From positions 992,001 to 1,056,000 of the forward strand of contig OZ245020.1 in assembly GCA_965223865.1 (NCBI GenBank): a stretch of DNA of 64,000 nucleotides, read 5' to 3'. This document shows, piece by piece, positions 16,041-31,494 of this stretch (positions are counted from its first letter, which is position 1; the number at the start of each line of letters is the position of its first letter). The notes under the pieces were generated by a model. That model did not search any database and was not told the origin of the DNA. It saw only the letters and a list, made by a program, of their open reading frames with translations. The stretch is from Nitrosarchaeum sp. (lineage in GTDB: Archaea; Thermoproteota; Nitrososphaeria; Nitrososphaerales; Nitrosopumilaceae). The position numbers and the translations under genes were made by a program.

Positions 16041-17381
16041 ATGAAAAAAGAAATAGTCATACTTGGAGGAGGTTTTGCAGGAACCACTTTGCTAAGACAA
16101 CTTCAGTCAAAATTCAAAAACAATTCTGATGTTAACATTAGTCTTGTAGGAGATGATAATTTCTTTTTGTTTACTCCAATGCTGCCCGAGGTAGCATCAG
16201 GAATGCTGCATGCAGGAGACGTATCCACTCCAATCAGATTGTTTTGCAAACACGCACAGTTTTATCATGCCAAGGCAACATCCGTTGATTTTGAGAAAAA
16301 ACAAGTAAACATAGTTAGGATATTTGATGGAAAGAAAATAATTTTGCAGTATGATTATCTGATTTTTACATTAGGAAGTATCGATAATTTTTTTGGAAAT
16401 GAAAATATGAGAAAATACTCTTTTACAATAAAGACACTAGAAGATTCACTAGCCATACGTAATCACGTTATCAGCATGCTTGAGAGTGCAGACAATGAGT
16501 CAAACATAGAACTACAAGACGAACTGTCAAACTTTGTTGTAATAGGTGGTGGTTTTGCAGGAGTTGAGATAGCTTCTGAAATTAATCACCTAGTGCAAGA
16601 TGCATCAAAAACATATTATCCAAACATAGATCGTGCAAAACTCAAAGTAATTTTGATCTCAGCAAGAGATGGAATATTGCCTGAAGTTGGAGATGAACTT
16701 GGAAAGTTTGCACTTGATTCTCTCAGAAATGACGGCATACAAGTCATTACAAATACAAAGGCATCAGATGCAGGAGAAGATTTCGTAATCTTGGATGATA
16801 ATAACAAAACCAAAATCAATTGCGGCACTTTGATTTGGGCAGGCGGTGTAAGGGTAGACCCCTTGGTAGTATCTCTTGATTGTAAACATCATTCATCGGG
16901 AAGAATAATTGTAGATGAATATCTAAGGATAAAGGATCATGAAGATGTCTATGCACTTGGAGATTGTGCTTATATGATTGACAAAAATAAGGGAATTCCA
17001 TATCCTCCTACTGCACAGATTGCAATAAGAGCAGGCAAAATAACTGCAAAAAACATAATCCATCAAATAACAAAAAGCAACAATACAATTCTTGAACCAT
17101 TTTCTTATCACAACAAAGGAATAATGGCAACAATTGGAAAGAGAAACGCTGTTGCATTGATTGGAGGGAAAAAAATTCATGGTGTTTTGGCATGGATTCT
17201 ATGGAGATTCTTTTATCTCTCAAATCTTCCTACAAATGAGAAAAAAGTCAGAGTTGCACTTGAATGGTTCTTAGATGTGTTCTTCAAACATTCAGACATA
17301 TTAACAGTCGGCATAATAAAGCACAAAGAAGTAACAGAAGAGAATTCTAAACATGATCATCATCCAAGTCAACAGTTATGA
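16041..17381 (+). CDS. ndh: Type II NADH:quinone oxidoreductase-like FAD-dependent oxidoreductase
   Basis: Two GGGFAG dinucleotide motifs, FTPMLPEVASG, YALGDCA, PPTAQIA, KGIMATIG. Confidence 0.88.
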   Translation: MKKEIVILGGGFAGTTLLRQLQSKFKNNSDVNISLVGDDNFFLFTPMLPEVASGMLHAGDVSTPIRLFCKHAQFYHAKATSVDFEKKQVNIVRIFDGKKIILQYDYLIFTLGSIDNFFGNENMRKYSFTIKTLEDSLAIRNHVISMLESADNESNIELQDELSNFVVIGGGFAGVEIASEINHLVQDASKTYYPNIDRAKLKVILISARDGILPEVGDELGKFALDSLRNDGIQVITNTKASDAGEDFVILDDNNKTKINCGTLIWAGGVRVDPLVVSLDCKHHSSGRIIVDEYLRIKDHEDVYALGDCAYMIDKNKGIPYPPTAQIAIRAGKITAKNIIHQITKSNNTILEPFSYHNKGIMATIGKRNAVALIGGKKIHGVLAWILWRFFYLSNLPTNEKKVRVALEWFLDVFFKHSDILTVGIIKHKEVTEENSKHDHHPSQQL

Positions 17382-17452
17382 CTGCCAAAGAGAAACTCTT
17401 GCATGTAAAAAAACTCATCAACTTTTTTGTATGTTGGAAATTATTACTAATC

Positions 17453-17530
17453 ATGAGATGTGTAAATTGTGGAAACCAAGCAAGCTGGCGAGATTCTACT
17501 TGTAACAAATGTGACTTGCAGTCTTTCTGA
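17453..17530 (+). CDS. Candidate 25-aa zinc-ribbon microprotein
   Basis: MRCVNCGNQASWRDSTCNKCDLQSF* (CxxCG-x9-CxxC); below the ORF-track cut-off. Confidence 0.5.
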   Translation: MRCVNCGNQASWRDSTCNKCDLQSF

Positions 17531-17654
17531 TGTAATAGTAAGGGAAAAACAGAAGACTAAGTGTCATGTTGTTAATGAGCAGTTGTGAACACAAAAAAAT
17601 CTCAAAACAAATGAGAAATAGTTTAAATCCCATTGAAACTCACATAAAAATCTC

Positions 17655-19823
17655 ATGAAAGTTGCTTTAATTTACAATGAACGAGAAATCAATCCTGAGG
17701 ACGTAATCAATGTCTTTGGGATGACCACCAAAGAACATTATAGTAAAAAGGCAGTTGAGCGTGTTGCAAGAGCTCTAGAAAAAGGTGGACATACAGTCAA
17801 GGTAGTTGAAGGAGACATTCACTTGGCAGATGAGCTACGTGAGTTTATGCCAAAGGTAGTTGCAGGAGACTCTCCAGGAATGGTATTCAACATGGCATAT
17901 GGAATCCAAGGACAGAATCGTTACACACATGTTCCAGCAATGATGGAGATGTTAGGCATTCCATACATAGGATCAGGACCTGCAGGACACGCTATAGTTC
18001 AAGACAAGGTAATGACAAAAATCATCTTACAGAAAAACAATATTCCAACCCCTGGATTCTGGGTTTTCAAAACTGCAGAAGATACTTTTGATGATTTAAT
18101 ATTTCCTGTGATTGTTAAACCAAAACTAGAATCCACCTCGATGGGCATGGAAGTAGTTGACAACTGGGATGATCTGCGCAAGGCAGTAAAGGTGCAGATT
18201 GAAAAATTTCAACAAGATATTCTAGTAGAACAATTCATTTCGGGAAGAGAGTTTGCAGTAGGTATCCTGGGAAACACCCCCAACATCGACATTCTTCCCA
18301 TAGTTGAAATCAATCTAGATAATCCAGATCAAATTCAGACTATAGAGGATAAAAAGAAAAAAGGAGGGGTTGACAAGACATGTCCGGCAAAATTATCCAA
18401 AGAAAAAACAGAAGAGATGAAACAGATGTGCATAGATGCATTCTCATCTTTGGGACTAAATGATTACAGCAGGGTTGATTTTAGGATGGACAAAGATGAG
18501 AATCTTTACATTCTTGAATTAAATTCAATGGCAAGTCTTGGAATGGGAGGTTCACTATTTTACGCTGCACAAACTGCCGGATACACTTATGAATCTTTGA
18601 TCAACAAAATTCTTGATGTTGCAGTAATGAGATACTTTGGCTCATCACAAAAAATCGCAGAAATAGAGCCAGACATGACACAACCATTACGTGTAGTTGC
18701 AAGGACATACTTGCGAGGACATCTGCAAAGCATTAAAGAAACTCTAAGGGACTTGGTGAATCTCAATACTCATGTATATAATATTGACAACGTAAACAGG
18801 ATGGGCAATATTTTATCTCGCAGGCTAAAGCATTTGGGGTTTAATGAATATATTCACAAACAATTTGAGATCGGAGATTTTCGTTTTTTTAAAAATCATG
18901 ATGAATCAGAAAATGATGTCCTGATTGTATCTCATATTGATACTCACTACGGGCCAAATGACTTGATAAACTATTATGAAGATGGTGATAAAATACTTGG
19001 CTCTGGAATAGCTGAAAGCAAGGGAGGTCTAGTTGTGATGCTAGGTGCATTACATGCACTTCGATTTGCAAAGAAACTCCGTAAGGTAAAATGCGCAGTA
19101 CTGTTAACTACTGATGACAGTCTGGGGGGAAAATTTAGTAAGGATCTAGTGCAGCAATATTCTAAAACATCAAGGTACATCATGGGGTTAAAGTCTGCTA
19201 GTAAGGAGGGGGGAATAATTACAACATGTTATGGACGAAATGACTATCAGATTCGCTTTACTGCTCCTAATATAACATCTGCAGACATTCATGGCATCAT
19301 CCCAGTATTAGGCAAGAAAATCTCAGCAATTGAGAAATTATCAAAAGACGAAAAAGACTATCGCCTCAGAACAACTTCCATTGTTGCTCAAGGTTCTCAT
19401 GGTCACACCCCTAATTATGCAACCCTGTCTTTGGTTTCAAGTTACAAGACGCCCCAACTGGGAGACTCGCTTGATTCAAAAATACGAAATATTATGAAAA
19501 AACGAGAAACAGGTGCTCCAAAACTTGATGTGGCAATTAACAGAGTTCAGACAAGACCGCCAGTAATGGAAGAAGAGTCAGATAAGGCCTTTTATGAGAT
19601 GATAGAAGATTTAGCAAAGAGACATGAGATTAAGATAAAACGACACGAACAAATCATGTCTTCAGATATTAGTAATGTGCCTCCTGAACTTCCAGCACTA
19701 GATGGATTCGGTCCAAAGGGTCACAAGTACCGCTCTCCTCAAGAGTATATCATTCATGACAGTATCGTTGAAAGGGCAGCCCTTCTAACATCTGTTATTT
19801 ACAGATGTTTTGAGAAAAAATGA
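17655..19823 (+). CDS. D-Ala-D-Ala-ligase-like ATP-grasp enzyme fused to a degenerate M20 peptidase domain
   Basis: DKVMTK, PVIVKP..STSMG, LVEQFISGREF, SRVDFR, LELNS (ATP-grasp); SHIDT, GSGIAESKGG, LDGFGP.G (carboxypeptidase G2-like fold). Confidence 0.88.
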   Translation: MKVALIYNEREINPEDVINVFGMTTKEHYSKKAVERVARALEKGGHTVKVVEGDIHLADELREFMPKVVAGDSPGMVFNMAYGIQGQNRYTHVPAMMEMLGIPYIGSGPAGHAIVQDKVMTKIILQKNNIPTPGFWVFKTAEDTFDDLIFPVIVKPKLESTSMGMEVVDNWDDLRKAVKVQIEKFQQDILVEQFISGREFAVGILGNTPNIDILPIVEINLDNPDQIQTIEDKKKKGGVDKTCPAKLSKEKTEEMKQMCIDAFSSLGLNDYSRVDFRMDKDENLYILELNSMASLGMGGSLFYAAQTAGYTYESLINKILDVAVMRYFGSSQKIAEIEPDMTQPLRVVARTYLRGHLQSIKETLRDLVNLNTHVYNIDNVNRMGNILSRRLKHLGFNEYIHKQFEIGDFRFFKNHDESENDVLIVSHIDTHYGPNDLINYYEDGDKILGSGIAESKGGLVVMLGALHALRFAKKLRKVKCAVLLTTDDSLGGKFSKDLVQQYSKTSRYIMGLKSASKEGGIITTCYGRNDYQIRFTAPNITSADIHGIIPVLGKKISAIEKLSKDEKDYRLRTTSIVAQGSHGHTPNYATLSLVSSYKTPQLGDSLDSKIRNIMKKRETGAPKLDVAINRVQTRPPVMEEESDKAFYEMIEDLAKRHEIKIKRHEQIMSSDISNVPPELPALDGFGPKGHKYRSPQEYIIHDSIVERAALLTSVIYRCFEKK

Positions 19824-21082
19824 GTCTTGAGTATGAGTTAGCAGCATTAGCTGCACTTATCGGATTGTCTGGTTTTTTTAGTGGACTAGAAGTCGCTTTG
19901 GTAGGTACCTCTCAGGCAACCATTGAAAGGCTCGTAAAAGAAAAGGTAAAAGGTGCAAAATCGCTTCAAAAACTAAAATCAAATCCAGGGTGGATGATGT
20001 CCAGTGTAAATCTTGGAAACAATCTTGTAAACATTGGTTCGGCATCTCTGGCTACTGTGATCTCAATTGAGATTTTTGGAGAAAATGGAGTTGGCATTGC
20101 AGTTGGAATAATGACTTTTTTGGTGATCATATTTGGAGAGGTCACTCCAAAGACATACTGTAATGCAAATGCTACAAAAATAGCGTTACGAAGTAGCGGA
20201 ATTTTACTTGCATTCAGCTATGTGTTTTATCCTGCAGTTTGGATTTTAGAAAAAATTACGCGCAGCATCATTAAAGTTACAGGAAGCGATTATCTGCCAC
20301 CTGCATTAACTGAAGAAGAGATCAAAGGGATAATCGAACAGGGACACAAAGACAAGGCCCTTGAGAAAGCTGAGAGAGACTTGGTTCGTGGAGCCCTAGA
20401 ATTTGATGATAGGGCAGTCAGGTCTGTTATGATGCCCAGAACAAAGATGTTCTGCCTGCACGCCAACGCACCATTAATTGATGCAGCAGACGCCATCCAC
20501 AAAAGTGGTCATTCCAGAATTCCAATCTATGGCAAAGACCTTGATGACATAGTTGGCATATTGCATGTACGGGATATACTCATACATCTAAAAGAGGCAG
20601 AGATCCAAAAGAAGAATCTTAGAGAGTTTGTAAGGGATCCAATTTATGTCTCACAGGAAAAGAGAATGAGCGATTTGTTAAAACAGATGCAGGCCAAGAA
20701 CACCCACATGGCAATTGTGGTTGATGAATTTGGAGGAGTCGAGGGATTAGTTACACTTGAGGATCTTATCGAAGAGATAGTCGGAGAGATTCATGATGAA
20801 ACAGATTCAACAAAACCATTGTATGAGAAAGTTGATGCAAACACAATAATCACAAACGGAGATATTGAAATTGACATTATTAATGAAATTTTTAAAACGA
20901 ACATTCAATATGGTGACAATTATTCTACACTAAACGGGTTACTGCATGAAAACTTGCATGATATTCCAGAAGTTGGAGATGTTGTCAAAATTGATCCTCT
21001 TTCAATAAAGGTTGAAAAAGTTTCAAAAAACAGACCTACAGTTATACGCATTGAGAAAATAAAAAAACCTGAACAGACATGA
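19820..21082 (+). CDS. CNNM/CorB (hemolysin-family) Mg2+ transporter: DUF21 + CBS pair + CorC domain
   Basis: SGFFSGLEVAL, FGEVTPK, VMMPR, GHSRIP, VDEFGGVEGLVTLEDLIEEIVGEI. Confidence 0.92.
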   Translation: MSLEYELAALAALIGLSGFFSGLEVALVGTSQATIERLVKEKVKGAKSLQKLKSNPGWMMSSVNLGNNLVNIGSASLATVISIEIFGENGVGIAVGIMTFLVIIFGEVTPKTYCNANATKIALRSSGILLAFSYVFYPAVWILEKITRSIIKVTGSDYLPPALTEEEIKGIIEQGHKDKALEKAERDLVRGALEFDDRAVRSVMMPRTKMFCLHANAPLIDAADAIHKSGHSRIPIYGKDLDDIVGILHVRDILIHLKEAEIQKKNLREFVRDPIYVSQEKRMSDLLKQMQAKNTHMAIVVDEFGGVEGLVTLEDLIEEIVGEIHDETDSTKPLYEKVDANTIITNGDIEIDIINEIFKTNIQYGDNYSTLNGLLHENLHDIPEVGDVVKIDPLSIKVEKVSKNRPTVIRIEKIKKPEQT

Positions 21083-22728
21083 AAGAGCAGATTGGAATTG
21101 TCGTAAATAGACTTGTAATAGGATTTACTTTTGCATTTGTCTATCAAATAGTAATTGGTGTTGCAACATCTCTGTTGTCATTACCCCTTACTGGAAACAT
21201 ACAAGATTTGATTGCAGGAATAGAACAAATTGAATCCTATCAAGGTTCTTGGTTTATAGCTTGGTGGATTGTCTCTACAATAATAATTACTGCGCTATCT
21301 CTTTTGGTTGTAAAATACAGGAAATACTTTTCTCCTTACAAAGAAGAAAAAAACATAGATCTTCCAACAAGAATTACTGCACTTACGGCCCTTATTGTAG
21401 GTGCAATAATCTCTTTTCTGTTTTTCTTGTTAGATTTGATAATAGGCTCGTTGGTAAAAATAGGTACTGCTACAGACGTACAAGCAATCTATCAAGCTGC
21501 AACTGCAGGTGATTTTACTCCTCTTACAGTAAGCATTGTGTTTTCTATACTTGCAGGATTTATCATAGTTGGGGTAGTCAGCAAAACTTCCAAAGTTTCA
21601 GAGATTACCCGTGAGTTTGGAATAAATGAATTTACGCGGTTTTCTAAAATCATAAGCAAGAAGAAAGAAGATAACAGAACCACAATTGCCGATACCATCG
21701 GACTTAGACCTGGAGAACTTGTACATGTAGGAGAAAGAAAAGTAGACAAGACTCGAATAGACCTTATTGAATTTGATGAAAAAGACATCAATGAAATCAA
21801 GGATGCATCAATTAAGACGTGTTTAGAATCTAAAAGTAAATCCAATATATCATGGATAAACATCATTGGAATACATGATCCTGACATCATCGGAAAGTTT
21901 GGAAATGCGTTTGGCCTACATACTCTACACCAGGCCAACATAATGAATACAGAGTTGAGACCATCCATTGAGATCTCCGATGAATATATTCATCTTATGC
22001 TAAAGATGCCGCACTTTAGCGAGGAAAAAGGAAAAATTGAGCTTGAACACATATCGCTTGTCATAGCACAAGACCATCTTTTGTCGTTTCAGGAGATTGA
22101 GCAAGATTTCTTTGATGGAATTCGAAAGAGACTAAAAGAGAATCTTGGCACCATTAGAAAACGTAAGACCGATTATCTAGCATATGCATTAATTGATGCA
22201 ATTGTTGATAGTTACTTTGTCATCCTTGAAAAAATTGGTGACATAACAGAAAACTTAGAAGATGAACTGATGTCCGATCCTAATCCTAGTACCTTGCAAA
22301 CCCTTCAGCTATTGAAACGACAAATGATTCTGCTTAGAAAATCTGTTTGGCCTGCAAGAGAAGTGATAGACAGTCTGCAACGCAGTCATGCTGTTCTTAT
22401 CTTTGATGAAACAAAGACGTATCTGAGAGACTCATACAATCACATAGTCCAAGTAATAGACACTATTGAAGGATTGCGTGATGTAATTGGTGGAATGGTA
22501 GATACCTATCTTTCCAGCGTAAGCAACAAAATGAATGAGGTGATGAAGACACTTACTGTCATTGCCAGCATATTCATTCCCATAACCTTCATTGCTGGGA
22601 TATATGGTACCAATTTTAGCTATGTTCCAGAATTAGAATGGGAGGGAAGCTATTTTGTCATGCTTGGTGTAATGATCATAATAGTTGCGGTAATGGTGTC
22701 GTGGTTTAAGAAAAAAAATTGGATTTAG
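21079..22728 (+). CDS. corA: CorA-family Mg/Co transporter with extra N-terminal membrane domain
   Basis: GLRPGELVHVG, DYLAYALIDAIVDSY, MNEVMKTLT..IFIPITFIAGIYGTNF..PEL.W. Confidence 0.9.
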   Translation: MKEQIGIVVNRLVIGFTFAFVYQIVIGVATSLLSLPLTGNIQDLIAGIEQIESYQGSWFIAWWIVSTIIITALSLLVVKYRKYFSPYKEEKNIDLPTRITALTALIVGAIISFLFFLLDLIIGSLVKIGTATDVQAIYQAATAGDFTPLTVSIVFSILAGFIIVGVVSKTSKVSEITREFGINEFTRFSKIISKKKEDNRTTIADTIGLRPGELVHVGERKVDKTRIDLIEFDEKDINEIKDASIKTCLESKSKSNISWINIIGIHDPDIIGKFGNAFGLHTLHQANIMNTELRPSIEISDEYIHLMLKMPHFSEEKGKIELEHISLVIAQDHLLSFQEIEQDFFDGIRKRLKENLGTIRKRKTDYLAYALIDAIVDSYFVILEKIGDITENLEDELMSDPNPSTLQTLQLLKRQMILLRKSVWPAREVIDSLQRSHAVLIFDETKTYLRDSYNHIVQVIDTIEGLRDVIGGMVDTYLSSVSNKMNEVMKTLTVIASIFIPITFIAGIYGTNFSYVPELEWEGSYFVMLGVMIIIVAVMVSWFKKKNWI

Positions 22729-22738
22729 TGTTTGATAG

Positions 22739-23530
22739 ATGACCAACAAAGCAATGCAACGTGCATATGAAATTCTTGAAGGCACTACTGATGACAAACT
22801 TGCAAAAGGATTTCAGATTTTTATCATATCCTTGATTGCAATAAATGTTCTATTTGTTATCATTGAAACTGAAGAATCGGTTTTAGATGAGTATGGTTAT
22901 CTTTTTACTCCCTTTGAAGTTTTTTCGGTAATAATTTTCACAACAGAATACATTGGAAGAATAATTGTCTGTAGGTTAAATCCAAAATATGAGAAGAGCA
23001 GATATGCAAGACTCCGATTTGTCTTTACCCCGATGATGTTAGTTGATTTGGCTGCAATATTGCCATTCTTCTTGCCGTTTGTAGTAACAGATCTTAGGTT
23101 CATAAGAATAATCAGACTCTTGAGACTATTCAGGCTGTTTAAGCTTGCCAGATATTCTGATCCGATGCAAACACTTGGCGAGGTATTCAAGGCAAAAGCA
23201 GGAGATCTTTCCATTGCATTTTTTATTCTTTTCATAGTGTTGATCTTTGCATCAAGTTTGATGTATTATGCAGAAAATGAATCTCAGCCAGAGATATTTT
23301 CTAGCATTCCTGCATCAATGTGGTGGGGAATTATCACATTAACTACTATAGGATATGGAGACACATACCCAGTAACAGTGTTAGGCAAGATAGTTGGCGG
23401 GGCAGTAGCCGTTCTTGGCATTGCAGTTTATGCCATTCCTACAGGCATCATGGCATCTGCATTTACTGAAGAATTACGCAAAAAAAGACAAAAGAAACGA
23501 ACATGCCCTCATTGTGGCAAGGAGATCTAA
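22739..23530 (+). CDS. Voltage-gated potassium channel (6TM) with C-terminal CPHCG
   Basis: S4 RFIRIIRLLRLFRLFKL; filter TTIGYGD. Confidence 0.93.
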   Translation: MTNKAMQRAYEILEGTTDDKLAKGFQIFIISLIAINVLFVIIETEESVLDEYGYLFTPFEVFSVIIFTTEYIGRIIVCRLNPKYEKSRYARLRFVFTPMMLVDLAAILPFFLPFVVTDLRFIRIIRLLRLFRLFKLARYSDPMQTLGEVFKAKAGDLSIAFFILFIVLIFASSLMYYAENESQPEIFSSIPASMWWGIITLTTIGYGDTYPVTVLGKIVGGAVAVLGIAVYAIPTGIMASAFTEELRKKRQKKRTCPHCGKEI

Positions 23531-23535
23531 AAAAA

Positions 23536-25167
23536 TTGGACATAAAAAAGATTGAAAACTCGTTTATCTCAACGTCTGACAAGAAATTTTCTTATGCAAA
23601 ACATGGCATGGTTTCCAGTGCGTTTCCTGATGCAACAAAGGCAGGAATTGAAATACTAAAGAAAGGAGGAAATGCCATAGATGCTGCATGTGCTACATCT
23701 ATTGCATTAGGTGTTTGTGAACCTCAAGCATCGGGCATTGGAGGACAATCCATGGCGATTTTACACATCAAAGGAAAAACAATCGCAATCGACGGGTCTA
23801 GCAGATCGCCTTCTCTTGCACATTCATCTATATTTCAAGGAAAGAGACCAAGATTGTTAGGATACAAGTCCACTACCGTTCCAAGTACTTTGGCTGTTAT
23901 TGGGTATATCCATGAGCGATATGGTGAATTAGAATGGCCAAAAATAATCCAACCAGCCATTAGAATTGCAAAACACGGTTACAAGATAACCAAACTCCAA
24001 CATGACTTGCAGGAAAGAGAGCTTGAAAATTTCTTGAAGATTAAATCAAAGTCAGGAGCAAAGTATTTTCTCAAAGACGGTCAAGTGCCTTATGATGTAG
24101 GAGATAGATTCATTCAAGAAGAGTTGGCAGATACTTTACGAAATATTTCAGAGCACGGATATAGAAGTTTCTATCATGGTCAGATTGCTAAAACAATCCA
24201 CAACGACATGAAAAAGAATAAAGGATTGATAAGAGACGAAGACCTGGCATTCATTCCCGAACCAATTGAAAGAAGACCAATCAGCAGATACTATCGCAGA
24301 ATAAACGTAGTAACCATGCCACCGCCTGCTGCCGGAAGAACCTTGCTTTTAACACTGATGATGCTTAATCATTTACCATCAAAATTTTTGAGAAGTTCAA
24401 AACCTGTTTCTTATCATTTTGTTGCAGAAACATTCAGAAAGGCGTTTTTCCATAGAGTGCAACGACCATTTAATCCTCATACATATCATCAAACTCAAGA
24501 TACGGTGCATTTGGCAAGAAGTTTTGCCAAACAAATGGCCGAATCCATTCACAGTACCATGGATGCTACTTTGCCCATGACTGATCCTGAATTTGGTGGT
24601 GAAGATACAACTCATCTCTCAGTAATGGATGATGAAGGCAACGCAGTAGGAATCACACAGTCAATTGAGTTGGCATATGGTGCAAAAACTGCTGCAGATG
24701 GATTGGGATTCCTTTACAATAATTACATGTCCGCATTTGAGTATACTAATCCTAACCATCCTTTTTTTATCAGGCCCAATGCCATTCCTTGGACGTCGGT
24801 TTCACCTGCATTTGTATTCTATGGGGGCAAGTTATGGATGGTAGTAGGCAGTCCTGGAAGCCAAAGAATATTTTCAGCTATAAGTCACTTTATCTCTAGA
24901 ATGGTTGACGGAGAACTACCAATGAGTGAAGCAATTCAGAGACCAAGGTTTCATTGCTCAATTGGAGGAACAGTAAGCTATGAGGATGAAGGATTTGATG
25001 ATAAAACATTGGACTATCTTACAGGAATAGGATATACTATTTCCAAGAAGGAGAGATGGTCGTTTTATCATGGGGCAATTCATGCAGTATTAAAATGTCA
25101 AACCAGAGAGGGATTTCAGGGTGTTGCAGAAGTAAGACGTGATGGAACAGCAGAGGGATTAAATTAA
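23536..25167 (+). CDS. ggt: Gamma-glutamyltransferase-family Ntn hydrolase (cytoplasmic, atypical pocket)
   Basis: GGNAIDAA, EPQASGIGG, nucleophile TTHLSVMD, GSPG, PRFH; TTG start 5 nt after the K+ channel stop; no signal peptide. Confidence 0.88.
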   Translation: MDIKKIENSFISTSDKKFSYAKHGMVSSAFPDATKAGIEILKKGGNAIDAACATSIALGVCEPQASGIGGQSMAILHIKGKTIAIDGSSRSPSLAHSSIFQGKRPRLLGYKSTTVPSTLAVIGYIHERYGELEWPKIIQPAIRIAKHGYKITKLQHDLQERELENFLKIKSKSGAKYFLKDGQVPYDVGDRFIQEELADTLRNISEHGYRSFYHGQIAKTIHNDMKKNKGLIRDEDLAFIPEPIERRPISRYYRRINVVTMPPPAAGRTLLLTLMMLNHLPSKFLRSSKPVSYHFVAETFRKAFFHRVQRPFNPHTYHQTQDTVHLARSFAKQMAESIHSTMDATLPMTDPEFGGEDTTHLSVMDDEGNAVGITQSIELAYGAKTAADGLGFLYNNYMSAFEYTNPNHPFFIRPNAIPWTSVSPAFVFYGGKLWMVVGSPGSQRIFSAISHFISRMVDGELPMSEAIQRPRFHCSIGGTVSYEDEGFDDKTLDYLTGIGYTISKKERWSFYHGAIHAVLKCQTREGFQGVAEVRRDGTAEGLN

Positions 25168-25193
25168 AAAACACATCACAACCACTGCCTATT

Positions 25194-25961
25194 TTGTTAT
25201 CCATTCCACATGGAGGAACACAAAAACCATCAGAGCTTGACGGACATTTGTGTATCGCTGACAGAGACATGTTTGATGATTCAGATCCATTTGTAATTGA
25301 GATTTATGATCTAGGGGAAAAAGTGCAACAGGTGATTAAGACAGACATTGCAAGGGCCTTCGTTGATCTTAACCGCTCTTTGCAAGATCTTCCACCAAAA
25401 AATCCTGATGGATTGATAAAAAGCACAACTTGCTATCAAAAACCCATTTACATAAAAGGAAAGGAACCCGATGAGGTATTAACTAATACTCTAATAGAAA
25501 TGTATTACAAACCATATCATAAGAAAATTCAGAAAAGTATTCATGAACTGGATTTGCAACTTTGTTTGGATTGCCATTCTATGGCATCGATTGCACCTAA
25601 CATTTCCCCAGACGGGAACAGTAAAAAAAGACCCATGTTTTGTCTTTCAAATCAAGATGGTAAAACATCATCAAATGAAATGATCAATATTTTAGCTGAA
25701 TGCATCTCTGAATCTTTTTCTGTTAGCAGAAATGAAATCGCTCTAAATGATCCGTTTCATGGAGGATACATCACAAAAACCTACGGCAACAACCCAATTC
25801 CATGGATCCAGATTGAGATGAATAGAGATCTATATTTATCAAAAGAGTGGTTTGACTATGAAACTCTAAGCGTTGACAATAAGAGATTAACTGCTTTAAA
25901 CCTCATGTTCAAAGATACGCTAGGTAAATTTTACAACAAATGCTTCAATGGCGAAGACTAA
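25194..25961 (+). CDS. N-formylglutamate amidohydrolase family protein
   Basis: SIPHGG, RAFVDLNR, YYKPYH, LDCHSM, N.PF.GGYIT, IQIEMNR.LY; homology (LPILL) continues upstream of the TTG, so the true start is uncertain. Confidence 0.88.
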   Translation: MLSIPHGGTQKPSELDGHLCIADRDMFDDSDPFVIEIYDLGEKVQQVIKTDIARAFVDLNRSLQDLPPKNPDGLIKSTTCYQKPIYIKGKEPDEVLTNTLIEMYYKPYHKKIQKSIHELDLQLCLDCHSMASIAPNISPDGNSKKRPMFCLSNQDGKTSSNEMINILAECISESFSVSRNEIALNDPFHGGYITKTYGNNPIPWIQIEMNRDLYLSKEWFDYETLSVDNKRLTALNLMFKDTLGKFYNKCFNGED

Positions 25962-26210: not shown

Positions 26211-27206
26211 TTATCCTCTATCAGTTTCTCCAGCAATGTCTCCTACAATCTCCTCTAAAAGATCTTCAACAGTTATAATTCCTTGTAGTTGTTCATCTTC
26301 ATCTAAAACAATTGCTACATGACTAACATTTTTTTTAAGGTCTACTAGCAACTCACTGATCTTTTCATTTGAAAAAACAAAAAATGGTTTTCTGGCAATC
26401 TTGCCTATCTTAGTTCTCTTGTATTCTTTTTCGGCAAGTCTAGCAATGTCCCATATGTGTAAGACTCCTACAATGTTTTCAGAAGTGTTTGAAAAAACAG
26501 GGATTCTAGAGAATCTCTTTTCTTTTATCTGTGGGAAAACCTCAGATAACAGGCTCTCAGCATTCAGCGAAAAAATATTCTTTTTTGGAGTCATTACATC
26601 AATGATTGGTTTGTCGTCAAATTCGAGTGCCTTGTGCACTAGATCATGCTCTTCACGTTCTATGGCCTTCTCAGATAATCCTAAATCTACTACCTCTTTG
26701 ATATCTTCCTCTGTAATTGGTTTTGGGGATGCAGTTCCTCCAACTAATTTTAAAAATGCTTTTGTCAAATACTCCAAAAACAAAACAAATGGATACATCA
26801 CATAAGTAAATGCAAGAAGAAAACTGCTAAAATACAAGGCTACTCTTTCAGACTGAATGTTAGAGTATGTCTTGGGCAAAATCTCGCCAAACACCAATAT
26901 TACAAAAGTCATTATTCCAATGGCAATTCCAACACCCTGATTGCCTAGCAGTTTAATGGCAACATCAGCTGCCAACACAGAAGAAGCTACATTGACCAAT
27001 GTGTTTCCTAAATTTACACTTGAGGTCATACGGCTTGGGTTTGTCTTTAGTTTGTATAGTGCAGACGCGCCTCTGATTTTTTTACGATACAATCTCATGA
27101 CTTTGGAACGTCTTGTACCAACGATAGCAATTTCAAGTCCGCTAAAAAGTGCATATAATCCAATAAGAATCAATATTGCAATGATCTCAATCTCCACATA
27201 TTCCAA
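26211..27206 (-). CDS. Second CNNM/hemolysin-family protein (DUF21 + CBS, no CorC tail)
   Basis: FSGLEIA, FGEILPK, FSRIPV, EDLLEEIVGDI; paralog of 19820-21082. Confidence 0.9.
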   Translation of the reverse strand: MEYVEIEIIAILILIGLYALFSGLEIAIVGTRRSKVMRLYRKKIRGASALYKLKTNPSRMTSSVNLGNTLVNVASSVLAADVAIKLLGNQGVGIAIGIMTFVILVFGEILPKTYSNIQSERVALYFSSFLLAFTYVMYPFVLFLEYLTKAFLKLVGGTASPKPITEEDIKEVVDLGLSEKAIEREEHDLVHKALEFDDKPIIDVMTPKKNIFSLNAESLLSEVFPQIKEKRFSRIPVFSNTSENIVGVLHIWDIARLAEKEYKRTKIGKIARKPFFVFSNEKISELLVDLKKNVSHVAIVLDEDEQLQGIITVEDLLEEIVGDIAGETDRG

Positions 27207-27713: not shown

Positions 27714-28223
27714 TTGCGCCCAATGACCAGCGATAATGAAAGCAATAACAACAGAGAAAAAAGGGAAGTAGTACCGTTTTGGCGTTCAGGATTTGATGAT
27801 CTGGATAGGGTCTTCAACAATTTTAAGAGAGATTTTGAGCATGTCTTAGCACCATCATTTGCAATGGCAAAGCCATTCCATCATGCATTAGAGTCCTCAC
27901 CAGCATGTGACCTTGTAGATGAAGGAGACAAGTTTGTAGTTACTGCAGACATGCCAAGGATAAAAAAAGAAGAAATCAACCTCAATGTAGGAGATGATTA
28001 TATTGACATCTCAGCTGAGCACAAGGAATCTGAAGAGGAAAAGAAGAAAAAATACATCAGAAAGGAACACAGTAAAGTATCCATTCACAGAAGAATGTCT
28101 CTTCCAGAACGAGTAAAGTCATCAGATGTCAAGGCCAAACTAAATAATGGAATACTTACAATAGATATTCCAAAAGAAAAACCCACTCCTCAACCAAAGA
28201 CAACTAAAATTAAAATAGAATAA
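27714..28223 (+). CDS. Hsp20/alpha-crystallin small heat-shock protein
   Basis: DLVDEGDKFVVTADMP, LPERV, AKLNNGILTIDIPK. Confidence 0.93.
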   Translation: MRPMTSDNESNNNREKREVVPFWRSGFDDLDRVFNNFKRDFEHVLAPSFAMAKPFHHALESSPACDLVDEGDKFVVTADMPRIKKEEINLNVGDDYIDISAEHKESEEEKKKKYIRKEHSKVSIHRRMSLPERVKSSDVKAKLNNGILTIDIPKEKPTPQPKTTKIKIE

Positions 28224-28365: not shown

Positions 28366-29169
28366 TTATTTGATTTCATCCCAATGAGAAATATGTGATG
28401 AGCCAGCACTTTTCTGATATGCTTCAATCAAGTCTACTGCAGTAACAATTCCAACTAAATCCTTATCATGTGTAATGCCTAATCTCTTGGTATTATTTGC
28501 AGCCATAATTCGAGCAGCACCTTTTGCATGGATATTATCTTCAGATTTGATTAAAGGCCATGAAGAATATGATTCTATCTCCTCATTCAATGAAGTCTCT
28601 TGTTTTAGACAGTGAAGAACATCTCTTTCAGTAAATATCCCATAATACGCGAAATTTCCAACAATTACACTTCCTATATTTTTTTCAAGCATTATTTTGA
28701 CTGCTTCTTTTATTTTTGTCTTTGAGTTACATGTCATCAAGTCTTTGCTCACAAATGGTTTTATCGGAGGATCATCGTCAGTTTTCTGAAAAGCTCGCAA
28801 CATATCAGTGGCAGTGATTATTCCAACCAATTTTTTGGCTTCTGCAAAGACTAAAATCCGAGATTTTTTTGATGTCATAATTTTTGTAGCATCAAGCACG
28901 GAAATTCCCGGATCAATGACGTCGTACGGTTGTTTTCCTATATGCTTGATTGGTGTTTCAGGATCTGCATCCTTTGACACTATATGTTTTAGAACTTCTC
29001 TTTCTGTAAAAACTCCAATCGGTTTTTCTCTTTCTGTTACTATGAGATTACCAAATCCTCTTTCGGACATAAAGTCAACTACAGTTTTGAAAGAAACGCT
29101 TGATTTTACCGTAATAGGATATGCAGTCATAAATTGAGAAACTGGTAGGTCCTCTATTTTTAAAAACAT
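28366..29169 (-). CDS. Protein with four CBS domains
   Basis: Repeated GVFTERE / GIITATD / GIFTERD / GIVTAVD. Confidence 0.9.
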   Translation of the reverse strand: MFLKIEDLPVSQFMTAYPITVKSSVSFKTVVDFMSERGFGNLIVTEREKPIGVFTEREVLKHIVSKDADPETPIKHIGKQPYDVIDPGISVLDATKIMTSKKSRILVFAEAKKLVGIITATDMLRAFQKTDDDPPIKPFVSKDLMTCNSKTKIKEAVKIMLEKNIGSVIVGNFAYYGIFTERDVLHCLKQETSLNEEIESYSSWPLIKSEDNIHAKGAARIMAANNTKRLGITHDKDLVGIVTAVDLIEAYQKSAGSSHISHWDEIK

Positions 29170-29286: not shown

Positions 29287-30621
29287 ATGATAGTAAGATC
29301 CTTTGAGTATACTATTCCTCAAATCACATATCTAGTCAAGAAAAAACTATGGGCTCAGGTTCTTGTTGGTTTATTCTTTGGTTTGATTTTAGGAATAGTT
29401 CTTGGTCCAGAAGCAAATTTAGTTCCTAGAGAATCGGTTCAGGTGCTCACAGAGTGGTTATCAATACCTGCCAATCTATTTCTTAAAATAATACAAATGA
29501 TTATTGTTCCTCTTATCTTTGCATCAATAATCCGTGGACTCACATCTACAGGAAATATGGAGCAGCTAAGATCAATTGGTATTGGAACTACCATGTATTT
29601 TATAATCACCACCATAATTGCCATGGCAATTGGGATTCTAGTTGCAACTGCAATCATGCCAGGAAATTTTATTGACAGTTCTCTGATATTCGAAAGTTTT
29701 GGAATTGAAGAGACTGAAAATATGGTAGAACAAACTGAGTTTGGTCTAAGCGATATCCCCCAAGGTATTGTTGGTTTTATTCCTAGCAACCCCTTAGAAT
29801 CAATGCTTTCAGGTGAGATGTTAAGCATAATCGTTTTTGCCCTATTTGTAGGAGTGGCATTGATATCATTACCAAAGAAAAGCTCTGAGCCAATACTTGA
29901 CTTGTTGGATGGTGTTCAGAAAATCACTATGAAAGTTGTTTCATGGGCAATGCGTTTGGCCCCCTTTGCGGCTTTTGGATTAATGGCAGACATTACATCA
30001 AAACTTGGCGTATCTGCACTTGTGGGACTCGGAGTCTACATGGTGACTGTGGTAATTGGACTCTTTGCAGTATTGGTTGTCTATATAATCATAATCAAGT
30101 TTTTTACCAAAAGGCCTCTTGCCTCGACGTTGGGAATGCTCAAGGATCCTATGCTTCTTGGTTTTTCAACATCAAGCTCTGCTGCAGTAATGCCAGTATC
30201 CATCAAAACGGCTGAGGAGAAATTAAAAGTAAAACCCGAAGTTTCCCAGTTTGTAATTCCTTTGGGGGCAACAATCAATATGAATGGAACTGCCTTGTAT
30301 CAAATAGTTGCAGTGTTTTTCCTGGCACAGCTTTTCAATATTGACCTTGGAATAACCACCATACTTTTGATTGCATTGACTGCCCTTGCTGCATCAATAG
30401 GAGCACCTTCTGCCCCGGGAACTGGAATTGTGATACTTTCATCCATACTTGTTACTGCAGGAGTTCCAGCAGTTGGCATTGTTCTTATTCTTGGAGTAGA
30501 TAGAATTTTAGATATGACCAGAACTATGATCAATGTTACTGGCGATCTTACGGCTTGCCTCTTCTTTGATAAAAGGACAAAAGTAGAGAATGCTACATCT
30601 AAGGATCAGAAACATCAGTAA
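29287..30621 (+). CDS. Dicarboxylate/amino acid:cation symporter (DAACS, GltP/GltPh-like)
   Basis: FSTSSSAA, PLGATINMNGT, DRILDMTRTMINVTGD. Confidence 0.93.
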   Translation: MIVRSFEYTIPQITYLVKKKLWAQVLVGLFFGLILGIVLGPEANLVPRESVQVLTEWLSIPANLFLKIIQMIIVPLIFASIIRGLTSTGNMEQLRSIGIGTTMYFIITTIIAMAIGILVATAIMPGNFIDSSLIFESFGIEETENMVEQTEFGLSDIPQGIVGFIPSNPLESMLSGEMLSIIVFALFVGVALISLPKKSSEPILDLLDGVQKITMKVVSWAMRLAPFAAFGLMADITSKLGVSALVGLGVYMVTVVIGLFAVLVVYIIIIKFFTKRPLASTLGMLKDPMLLGFSTSSSAAVMPVSIKTAEEKLKVKPEVSQFVIPLGATINMNGTALYQIVAVFFLAQLFNIDLGITTILLIALTALAASIGAPSAPGTGIVILSSILVTAGVPAVGIVLILGVDRILDMTRTMINVTGDLTACLFFDKRTKVENATSKDQKHQ

Positions 30622-30693: not shown

Positions 30694-31494
30694 TTATTCT
30701 TTTAGCTTACTCTCTTTGAATATGTCGGAGCCATACCAACAGTATCTGAAATAGTCAAGGCACCACTCATGAAACATTTGATCATCTCCATGGAGCATTT
30801 CAGTAATGTCTGCTTCTCCATTAGTTGTAGGAAACATTATACATGCTTCTTTTTCATTGATTACCAAGACCGTTTGAATACTTTTGACCATTTTTCTTTC
30901 AACTAATCCTTTTTCAATTAGTTTGTCAAACCCAAGTTTTTTCAACAATGCTTTTCTACCTTTTGGCACCACGATATTCTCTGCAAAAATATACTGAAAC
31001 CTAATTCCTTTTTTAACGCGCTTAATCAAAGGCTCAATCAAGTCCAATGGAACCTCTGATAATATTTCGTAGATATACTCATCAGCATTTCTGTAAATTG
31101 TCTTCCACTGTTCAAGGATTTTAGATACTCCCTTGATGTGTTTTCCAGAGGCAAGCTGTCCTGCTCGCATAATAAACTTGGTTGGAAGATCTCCAAACGT
31201 ATGATCTTCAAAGTAGGTTCTATTCTGAGATAAAAACACAAGTGAAGGAACTTGAGTACACATTGTTTTTCCAAAGGTAGTTAATGCATATTTTCCATCC
31301 TTGTCTTTTTCAATCATTCCACTTTCCTCTAAACGAATAAAATTTCTGTGAACTTCTTGTTTTGTGACCCCGATCTCTCTTGCAAGAAATGTTGCTGTAG
31401 TTCTTTTCTGCAATAATTTGAATAAAATCTCTAATCTTTGAGAGCTTGTAAGCTCCAAAAAGTTTTCAGATGCTTTATCGTACAAGTCACTCAT
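30694..31494 (-). CDS. ArsR-like HTH transcription regulator (archaeal DUF1724-type)
   Basis: RLEILF...LAREIGVTKQEVHRNF.RL; C-terminal FHEWCLDYFRYCW. Confidence 0.82.
   Translation of the reverse strand: MSDLYDKASENFLELTSSQRLEILFKLLQKRTTATFLAREIGVTKQEVHRNFIRLEESGMIEKDKDGKYALTTFGKTMCTQVPSLVFLSQNRTYFEDHTFGDLPTKFIMRAGQLASGKHIKGVSKILEQWKTIYRNADEYIYEILSEVPLDLIEPLIKRVKKGIRFQYIFAENIVVPKGRKALLKKLGFDKLIEKGLVERKMVKSIQTVLVINEKEACIMFPTTNGEADITEMLHGDDQMFHEWCLDYFRYCWYGSDIFKESKLKE

Follow-up and report, generated by a model that had tools for sequence, protein, structure and literature searches.

A stretch of 64,000 nucleotides from the genome of a Nitrosarchaeum species (GenBank assembly GCA_965223865.1, contig OZ245020.1, positions 992,001 to 1,056,000 of the forward strand; this whole stretch is called the window here, and coordinates follow its own numbering unless a locus is named) carries a run of six genes at 17655 to 25961, in which three enzyme genes are combined with three genes for ion transport. 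The host is a marine ammonia-oxidising archaeon and belongs to a lineage without murein. Our main finding is that the conserved unit is a cassette of three enzymes—an ATP-grasp ligase fused to an M20 peptidase fold (LIG), a gamma-glutamyltranspeptidase-like hydrolase (GGT), and a hydrolase of the N-formylglutamate amidohydrolase family (FGase)—and that the transporters are accessory to it. Taken as a whole, the best explanation we can offer is that of a horizontally mobile LIG-GGT-FGase unit, an account we regard as plausible if slightly short of probable. With the same caution we suggest that the cassette turns over a small cytoplasmic amide, probably one that contains glutamate, the pool of which is tied to turgor and to the flux of K+ and divalent cations. 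The six genes are as follows.

17655..19823, plus strand: LIG, 722 aa; Ddl-like ATP-grasp ligase (residues 1 to about 330) and degenerate M20/CPG2-like domain (about 350 to 722); Pfam, NCBIfam; first gene of the enzyme trio
19820..21082, plus strand: CNNM/CorC-type transporter, 420 aa; CNNM membrane domain, CBS pair and CorC_HlyC; Pfam; accessory
21079..22728, plus strand: long CorA-family channel, 549 aa; Pfam CorA 5e-63
22739..23530, plus strand: voltage-sensor K+ channel (Kv), Ion_trans/Ion_trans_2, 263 aa; Pfam
23536..25167 (alternative start ATG 23503, 554 aa), plus strand: GGT-like Ntn hydrolase; Pfam G_glu_transpept 1e-113; second gene of the trio
25194..25961, plus strand: FGase-family (PF05013) amidohydrolase, 255 aa, TTG start; Pfam 5e-45; third gene of the trio

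All six open reading frames (ORFs) were confirmed on the plus strand in the order LIG-CNNM-CorA-Kv-GGT-FGase, as the original prediction of a co-oriented operon had described them, and so were their close junctions. ATGA stop/start overlaps can be read directly in the sequence at 19820-19823 and 21079-21082; the gap between CorA and Kv is 10 nt, and that between GGT and FGase 26 nt. Between Kv and GGT lie 5 nt if the in-frame TTG at 23536 is taken as the start, or an overlap of 28 nt if the ATG at 23503 is used—we prefer the TTG because nine aligned homologues have matching N-termini. The genes are presumably co-expressed. A scan for promoters and terminators, based on a bacterial sigma-70 model and so uninformative for an archaeal host, counted 33 promoter-like sites (29.7 expected) and 5 terminator-like sites (5.1 expected).

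The case for the cassette as a unit comes from other genomes. A search of 61 related genomes, 37 from the same family and 24 from other families, found the full-length ligase fusion in 10 of the 37 and in none of the 24. A GGT orthologue (58-81% identity) and an FGase occur together in nine of these ten ligase genomes—in the tenth, the locus ends at a contig edge—and FGase was found nowhere else among the 61. Wherever the locus could be assessed in the relatives (eight of eight), LIG, GGT and FGase lie together. Beyond these genomes, a representative library held 504 LIG relatives at E <= 1e-30, many of them full-length fusions, and a wider scan with one genome per species gave 578 relatives, of which the best 80 loci were fetched and their neighbouring ORFs clustered. 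The counts that follow are for 79 loci with a ligase ORF; two further loci showed none under a crude ORF caller. The fetched loci come from Nitrosopumilaceae, Methanosarcinales (including ANME-2c), Nitrospinota, Nitrosomonas marina, Binatia, Acidobacteriota, Gemmatimonadota, Ignavibacteriota, Bacteroidota, Fusobacteriota and others, with more than 10 bacterial phyla in all.

The complete trio is present in 41 of the 79 loci. Another eight have GGT with no FGase in view, and in six of these the contig stops within 4 kb downstream of LIG; 13 have a glutamine amidotransferase (GATase) of the GuaA-N-terminal/TrpG-like type directly upstream of LIG and neither GGT nor FGase; and the remaining 17 have neither the GGT/FGase partners nor the amidotransferase, the contig stopping within 700 nt downstream of LIG in eight. 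A ligase tree of 75 rows, made by a quick method, carries SH-aLRT support only. Its 23 rows from Nitrosopumilaceae group together in a single supported clade, those from Methanosarcinales are placed among bacterial ones, and the cassette has therefore moved between domains. Across archaea and bacteria alike the trio travels together, and genes for cation and osmotic channels are enriched beside it (see below), which bears out the association of these enzymes with ion transport that had first been proposed from the window alone.

Ligases of the GGT type and the GATase type are interleaved in the tree, and both this and the 13 amidotransferase loci bear on a different chemistry: ammonia-dependent amidation. 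LIG would activate a carboxylate, ammonia would be supplied by the GATase or by the GGT-like protein acting as a glutaminase, and the product would be an amino-acid amide; the immediate position of a class I GATase before LIG speaks for such a scheme, as does enzymology, since class I amidotransferases and GGT both work via a gamma-glutamyl-enzyme intermediate. We consider amidation quite improbable all the same. It leaves FGase without a role, the interleaving fits interchangeable hydrolases equally well, and to our knowledge no ATP-grasp enzyme takes ammonia from a GGT.

The ligase itself combines Dala_Dala_lig_C (1e-33) and Peptidase_M20 (PF01546, 2e-10) within one protein. The closest PDB sequence match of the ligase half is Ddl 5d8d (3e-29), and against the curated Ddl/Van models the protein scores below every cut-off (at best 171.2 bits vs 243 for NF002378; PRK01372). 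In an alignment that uses E. coli DdlB as the numbering reference, K97, K144, E180, E187, R255, D257, E270 and N272 are invariant or conserved, and a Glu matching Ddl E15 is kept in the fusions with an offset of one column. The Ddl substrate triad is not preserved: S150 is replaced by T, V or A and Y216 by K, T, V or E across the fusions. The positions are taken from the alignment, and the catalytic and specificity roles are those of the corresponding Ddl residues. With the catalytic set kept, S150 and Y216 changed, and the scores below the cut-offs, LIG is best described as a member of the Ddl branch of ATP-grasp ligases, apparently active and with a predicted specificity of its own, in agreement with the original prediction that a Ddl-like ligase must here make something else. 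The Ddl enzymes (DdlB/DdlA/VanA branch) remain its best sequence relatives, sharing the ATP-, Mg2+- and phosphate-binding residues in addition to the E15-like Glu; unlike them, LIG is fused to an M20 fold, occurs in murein-free archaea, and has GGT and FGase, not mur genes, as its linked partners. No mur genes were found among the window ORFs by the Pfam scan, and no genome-wide search for them was made.

The M20 half (residues about 360-650) finds its best structural-database match in carboxypeptidase G2 (CPG2; 1cg2, 2.6e-17), with which it has the fold in common, and does not keep the metal-binding and catalytic residues; a PDB sequence search likewise matched it to CPG2, at 6e-17. The di-zinc ligands of CPG2 are H112, D141, E176, E200 and H385, and its general base is E175. 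The window protein retains H112 and has D141 changed to E, E175 to D, E176 to S, and E200 to K; of 16 full-length fusions (28-54% identity) all lack E200 and 13 lack E176, and five retain the His of the HxD motif. Losses of this kind suggest that a di-zinc site cannot form, and we treat the domain as non-catalytic, probably serving in substrate binding or assembly. The M20 domain would thus not be a functioning third hydrolase of the cassette. A hydropathy scan of the LIG, GGT-like and FGase proteins revealed no hydrophobic segment, and the enzymes are therefore read as cytoplasmic.

A catalytically dead peptidase fold is also a plausible binding module for a larger substrate, and this raises the idea that LIG tags peptides or proteins by RimK-like C-terminal addition, with the M20 fold holding the target and GGT and FGase acting as erasers; the targets could be the neighbouring transport proteins. 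Genes for RimK-like and GCS2 ligases lie nearby at three loci (L044, L061 and L063), and a small Cys-rich ORF is present just upstream of LIG in the window. The nearest relatives of LIG, however, are small-molecule ligases of the Ddl family, and clustering of the neighbourhoods yielded no conserved small-protein partner; tagging is therefore very improbable in our estimation.

The GGT-like protein lies just above the threshold of its family model (TIGR00066, 360.9 bits vs a cut-off of 357.85). We aligned it and its homologues with E. coli GGT: the nucleophile T391 is invariant in 11 aligned sequences and the S462/S463-type positions are kept, N411 is replaced by E, Q430 by Y, and D433 by A or variable residues, and a 10-residue deletion takes out the lid loop. 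In the E. coli enzyme N411, Q430 and D433 serve to bind the gamma-glutamyl alpha-amine. The hydropathy scan showed neither a signal peptide nor a hydrophobic N-terminus, and the homologues begin about 25 residues before the match to the mature domain. Full-length similarity and the Thr nucleophile are common to this protein and the bacterial GGTs (E. coli GGT, and the lid-less Bacillus GGT and CapD types); unlike E. coli GGT it lacks the signal peptide, the lid loop and all three of the residues just named. We therefore read the enzyme as cytoplasmic, and canonical binding of a free gamma-glutamyl alpha-amine is improbable for it. One Nitrosopumilaceae locus (L016:5737-13865) holds three GGT paralogues, 58-65% identical to the window GGT, around LIG and FGase and on both strands.

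Membership of the third enzyme in PF05013 is clear (154.8 bits vs a cut-off of 28.9), and its score against the hutG equivalog TIGR02017 is far below threshold (100.3 bits vs 278.75). Neither urocanase nor histidase (PF01175, PF00221) was found in the genome, which is 99.98% complete, and the original remark that hut genes do not explain the amidohydrolase is borne out. An AlphaFold2 model (pLDDT 93.4) has its best fold match in 2q7s, with a TM (template modelling) score of 0.74, and among 15 cassette FGase homologues 36 columns are invariant and the PHGG, HSM and QIE motifs are conserved. Pfam family, fold and these motifs are shared with HutG (PDB 2q7s); unlike HutG, the cassette FGase has no hut partners and is always paired with LIG and GGT. 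A link from FGase to poly-gamma-glutamate hydrolases was sought by fold search and not found: good matches were confined to the FGase-family structures 2q7s and 2odf, and M14 carboxypeptidases and amidases gave TM scores below 0.4.

Of the three transporters in the operon, Kv shows in its translation an S4 segment with an Arg repeat and the K+ channel filter TTIGYGD. The long CorA scores 280.3 bits against TIGR00383 (cut-off 200.75) and has C-terminal hydrophobic segments at residues 492-510 and 525-543; it also has an N-terminal extension of about 240 aa (window 21079-21810) with about four hydrophobic segments by hydropathy scan, and residues 1-244 match no Pfam family. The CorA signature motif GMN is GTN here (YGTNF), as it is in the long CorAs of L016, L095 and L096; YGMNF or YGMNV is found in the CorA of L038, in four cassette-linked CorAs of bacteria, and in the short CorA of the window genome. 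The original description of Mg2+ and K+ transporters stands as to the families and the K+ channel; given the GTN motif and the extra N-terminal segments, Mg2+ is uncertain as the ion of the long CorA. The window genome has two CorA genes, the short one (349 aa) and the long one, with a mutual identity of 23-25%, and no MgtE was found in it. The long form is present in 8 of 10 trio genomes and 3 of the 27 others in the family (Fisher p 1.6e-4, a value that overstates the case because the genomes are related). In four bacterial loci the CorA beside the cassette is 32-36% identical to the long CorA of the window; in three of these four genomes it is the only CorA match, and the fourth adds two weak partial matches.

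The NCBIfam models for CorC and for PaeA, a polyamine exporter, match the CNNM protein in part, neither reaching its cut-off (PaeA 142 bits vs 500). This touches on a different reading, amine or polyamine conjugation: LIG would couple an amino acid such as glutamate to a biogenic amine, for instance a polyamine, the conjugate would be split again by GGT and FGase or by the GATase-like protein, and CNNM would export polyamines. The system would then manage organic cations that compete with Mg2+ and K+. Suitable genes do occur in three Bacteroidota loci (L065, L090 and L094), where arginine/ornithine decarboxylase, agmatinase-family and deoxyhypusine/homospermidine-synthase-like genes lie beside LIG (directly downstream and co-directional in L090); additionally, an arginase-family gene is present about 6 kb upstream of LIG in L019. 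Amine conjugation is nonetheless unlikely. Those three loci are the only ones of the 79 with the full polyamine gene set, and all three are without GGT and FGase; Pfam finds no polyamine genes near the window operon; and the conserved E15 equivalent together with an S281-like position suggests amino-acid substrates on both sides of the LIG reaction.

How the transporters are placed differs among relatives. The order LIG-CNNM-CorA-Kv-GGT-FGase of the window recurs in L001, L009 and L018, and the same order minus CNNM in L002, L003 and L004. CorA and Kv are divergent and upstream of LIG in L019; CNNM-CorA-Kv lies 4.5 kb downstream in L016; and CNNM, CorA or both follow FGase in L006 and L038. 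In L015 a 554-aa ORF like TnpB/IS605 OrfB, with a Cas12f1-like TNB domain, is found between LIG and GGT (L015:12145-14066) beside an 86-aa Kv remnant, as if the transporter module had been lost in connection with a transposon. FGase is followed by a GNAT gene at this locus. With such differences among close relatives, and with no transporter in the retrieved DNA of 47 of the 79 loci, the six-gene operon as an obligate unit has to be given up.

Ion-transport genes (MscS, CorA, CNNM, MgtE, NhaP, Kv, CCC) were counted across the 79 loci, and their density depends strongly on position: inside the cassette 12 of 32 genes are of this kind, one gene away from it 20 of 134, two genes away 10 of 120, and at three or more 21 of 660. 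Pooled, this is 42/286 within two positions vs 21/660 further away (odds ratio 5.2, Fisher p 7e-10, for loci that are not independent). At least one ion-transport gene is present in 32 loci, and within two genes of the cassette in 27. The transporter families differ from clade to clade, and by our reading of the ligase tree the adjacency occurs in about 12 separate clades.

These counts bear on whether enzymes and transporters share a function at all. It could be that CNNM-CorA-Kv is an independent unit, has merely come to lie at a permissive site within a mobile salt-adaptation island, and has nothing to do with the enzymes: CorA-Kv pairs do exist without the trio, in L095 (CorA L095:1725-3359) and L096 (CorA L096:224-1861), the trio exists without transporters, the TnpB/IS605-like ORF of L015 sits at the module position next to the Kv remnant, and the cassette is both patchy within its own family and able to cross domains. 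We nevertheless judge mere juxtaposition rather improbable, given that channel-gene density drops steeply away from the cassette, that at least four arrangements are seen within one family and the transporter families vary over the separate clades, that the cassette-side CorA is the sole CorA match in most of the bacterial genomes mentioned above, and that overlaps of the translational-coupling type connect LIG, CNNM and CorA in the window.

The account we favour, turnover of a small amide whose pool follows ion flux, would work as follows. Driven by Mg-ATP, LIG would join the carboxylate of a free-amine amino acid to a second amine and so form a small amide, for example a dipeptide or pseudopeptide; as in Ddl, it may be activated by K+. 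The GGT-like and FGase-type enzymes would then break the product down, releasing glutamate, and the pool would be adjusted with turgor and with the flux of K+ and divalent cations, so that the product might act as an osmolyte or as a cation counter-ion. In the window genome the link is a physical one, with the CNNM-long CorA-Kv module inserted between the first and second enzyme genes. Characterised members of the M20 (CPG2-like), GGT and FGase families cleave amides of glutamate; since all three hydrolase folds come from glutamate-amide families, the product is most likely glutamate-based and anionic. The amidotransferase that stands in for GGT and FGase in 13 loci likewise acts through a gamma-glutamyl-enzyme intermediate. 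The product may be the small acidic peptide or N-acyl amino acid, with an osmolyte or counter-ion role, that was suggested at the outset. A monovalent-cation site of Ddl is cited in PMC9486568, and by analogy such a site would let K+ influx act directly on the activity of the ligase.

Two further gene arrangements touch on this physiological role. In L103 ectA-B-C-D are followed on the same strand by an ORF with an MscS domain (gene order checked), and Nitrosopumilaceae do therefore wire solute synthesis to channels. Among the stand-alone Ddl-like paralogues nearest LIG, two of five loci carry a lysine-2,3-aminomutase-like radical-SAM gene and a GNAT gene (L010:10528-13125 and L011:6678-10747), and a TreT trehalose-synthase gene adjoins the cluster in L011; both loci belong to other families of the order. 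The radical-SAM, GNAT and TreT genes are of the osmolyte type, and the clusters may represent a beta-amino-acid solute pathway with a ligase step.

Several observations weigh against the turnover account. The trio stands without any transporter in L007 and L008, and 47 loci have no ion-transport gene in the retrieved DNA; the transporters are therefore dispensable for the chemistry. Replacement of GGT and FGase by the GATase is as well explained by ammonia transfer as by hydrolysis, and a plain gamma-glutamyl substrate is doubtful for the GGT-like protein because the alpha-amino-binding residues Q430 and D433 are missing. EctC, moreover, is found in 5 of 10 trio genomes vs 2 of 27 others. No EctC was found in the window genome; the cassette as a substitute for the ect genes was considered and rejected, since cassette and ect genes co-occur.

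A more specific version of the account can be put forward, which we hold to be doubtful: the product would be a glutamate-based anion of the cytoplasm, as yet undiscovered and perhaps a short oligoglutamyl compound that is N-blocked or gamma-linked, whose synthesis would be switched on directly by incoming K+ and Mg2+ via a cation-activated ATP-grasp enzyme and whose breakdown would be coupled to channel opening.

Among known systems, the nearest functional analogues of the cassette would seem to be ect-MscS operons and the make-and-break systems of glutathionylspermidine synthetase/amidase (GspSA) and the NAGGN pathway (Ngg/AsnO). The ectABCD-MscS cluster of Nitrosopumilus relatives likewise places solute-synthesis and channel genes on one strand, and in the same archaeal family; unlike that cluster, the cassette has K+ and divalent-cation channels, which lie inside rather than at the end, and different enzymes. 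The cluster was reportedly described by Widderich et al. 2016. In GspSA and NAGGN, an ATP-grasp ligase makes an amide containing Glu or Gln and is paired or fused with a hydrolase or amidotransferase that acts on this same amide. Unlike these two, the cassette has a fused hydrolase fold that is dead, and its partners GGT and FGase come from other families. In the searched passages of the review PMC5924519, no ect-mscS statement was found. Every domain of the cassette and its transporters comes from a known family, yet several defining features of Ddl, M20, GGT, HutG and CorA are missing. Our literature searches, whose coverage did not include the amidoligase paper of Iyer et al. 2009, returned no published description of a LIG-GGT-FGase cassette.

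The surroundings of the operon contain three further genes of relevance, two of which—the second CNNM and the symporter—had been noted originally as lying close by and are indeed present.

26211..27206, minus strand: second CNNM+CBS transporter, without CorC_HlyC, convergent with the operon; Pfam
29287..30621, plus strand: DAACS (GltP-like) symporter of the glutamate/aspartate type, a loose neighbour only; Pfam SDF 6e-115, GltP model 243 bits, below cut-off
30694..31494, minus strand: winged-helix regulator of the TrmB/HVO_A0261 type; Pfam

The CNNM gene of the operon is present in L001 and L009 and missing in L002-L004, and the second CNNM also recurs by the cassette, where its orthologues follow FGase in L006 (67% identity) and precede a GGT in L016 (78%). 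A DAACS symporter lies about 2 kb from LIG in L006 as well, and none was seen in the loci of the other eight relatives. A 74%-identical orthologue of the TrmB-type regulator is found right after FGase in L004 (L004:9141-9944), and a 51%-identical relative adjoins ectABCD genes in L102 (L102:4910-5716); the TrmB/HVO_A0261-type protein may be a candidate regulator of the operon, from a regulator family shared by osmo-adaptation genes. Between the second CNNM and the symporter, Pfam identifies an HSP20 gene (27714-28223, plus strand) and a multi-CBS-domain protein (28366-29169, minus strand), genes of the stress- and nucleotide/Mg-sensing type. Upstream of LIG, in a gap of 273 nt, lies the Cys-rich ORF mentioned above (17378-17530, plus strand; 50 aa), which has a C-terminal CxxC...CxxC arrangement (MRCVNCGNQASWRDSTCNKCDLQSF) and no Pfam match. 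The G+C content is 0.36-0.41 over window positions 17500-25500, 0.28-0.35 in the left flank and about 0.33 to the right, a mild shift such as acquired DNA could show.

Ectoine aside, little is known of how ammonia-oxidising archaea keep their osmolytes and cations in balance, and the window genome is one that has the cassette and no ectoine synthase. The cassette is common to the main groups of marine nitrifiers and is repeatedly wired to K+, divalent-cation and mechanosensitive channels—hence it provides a testable entry point both to an unknown metabolite and to the response of these organisms to shifts in salinity and ions. Two natural examples come with it as well: a ligase joined to a peptidase fold that is dead, and a subfamily of CorA marked by additional membrane segments and by GTN in its motif. 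If the doubtful proposal of a cation-switched glutamate-based anion were true, then Nitrosopumilaceae, Nitrospinaceae, Nitrosomonas marina, ANME archaea and many sediment bacteria would have in common a self-contained buffer of ionic strength, and its product would be a potentially abundant unknown marine metabolite.

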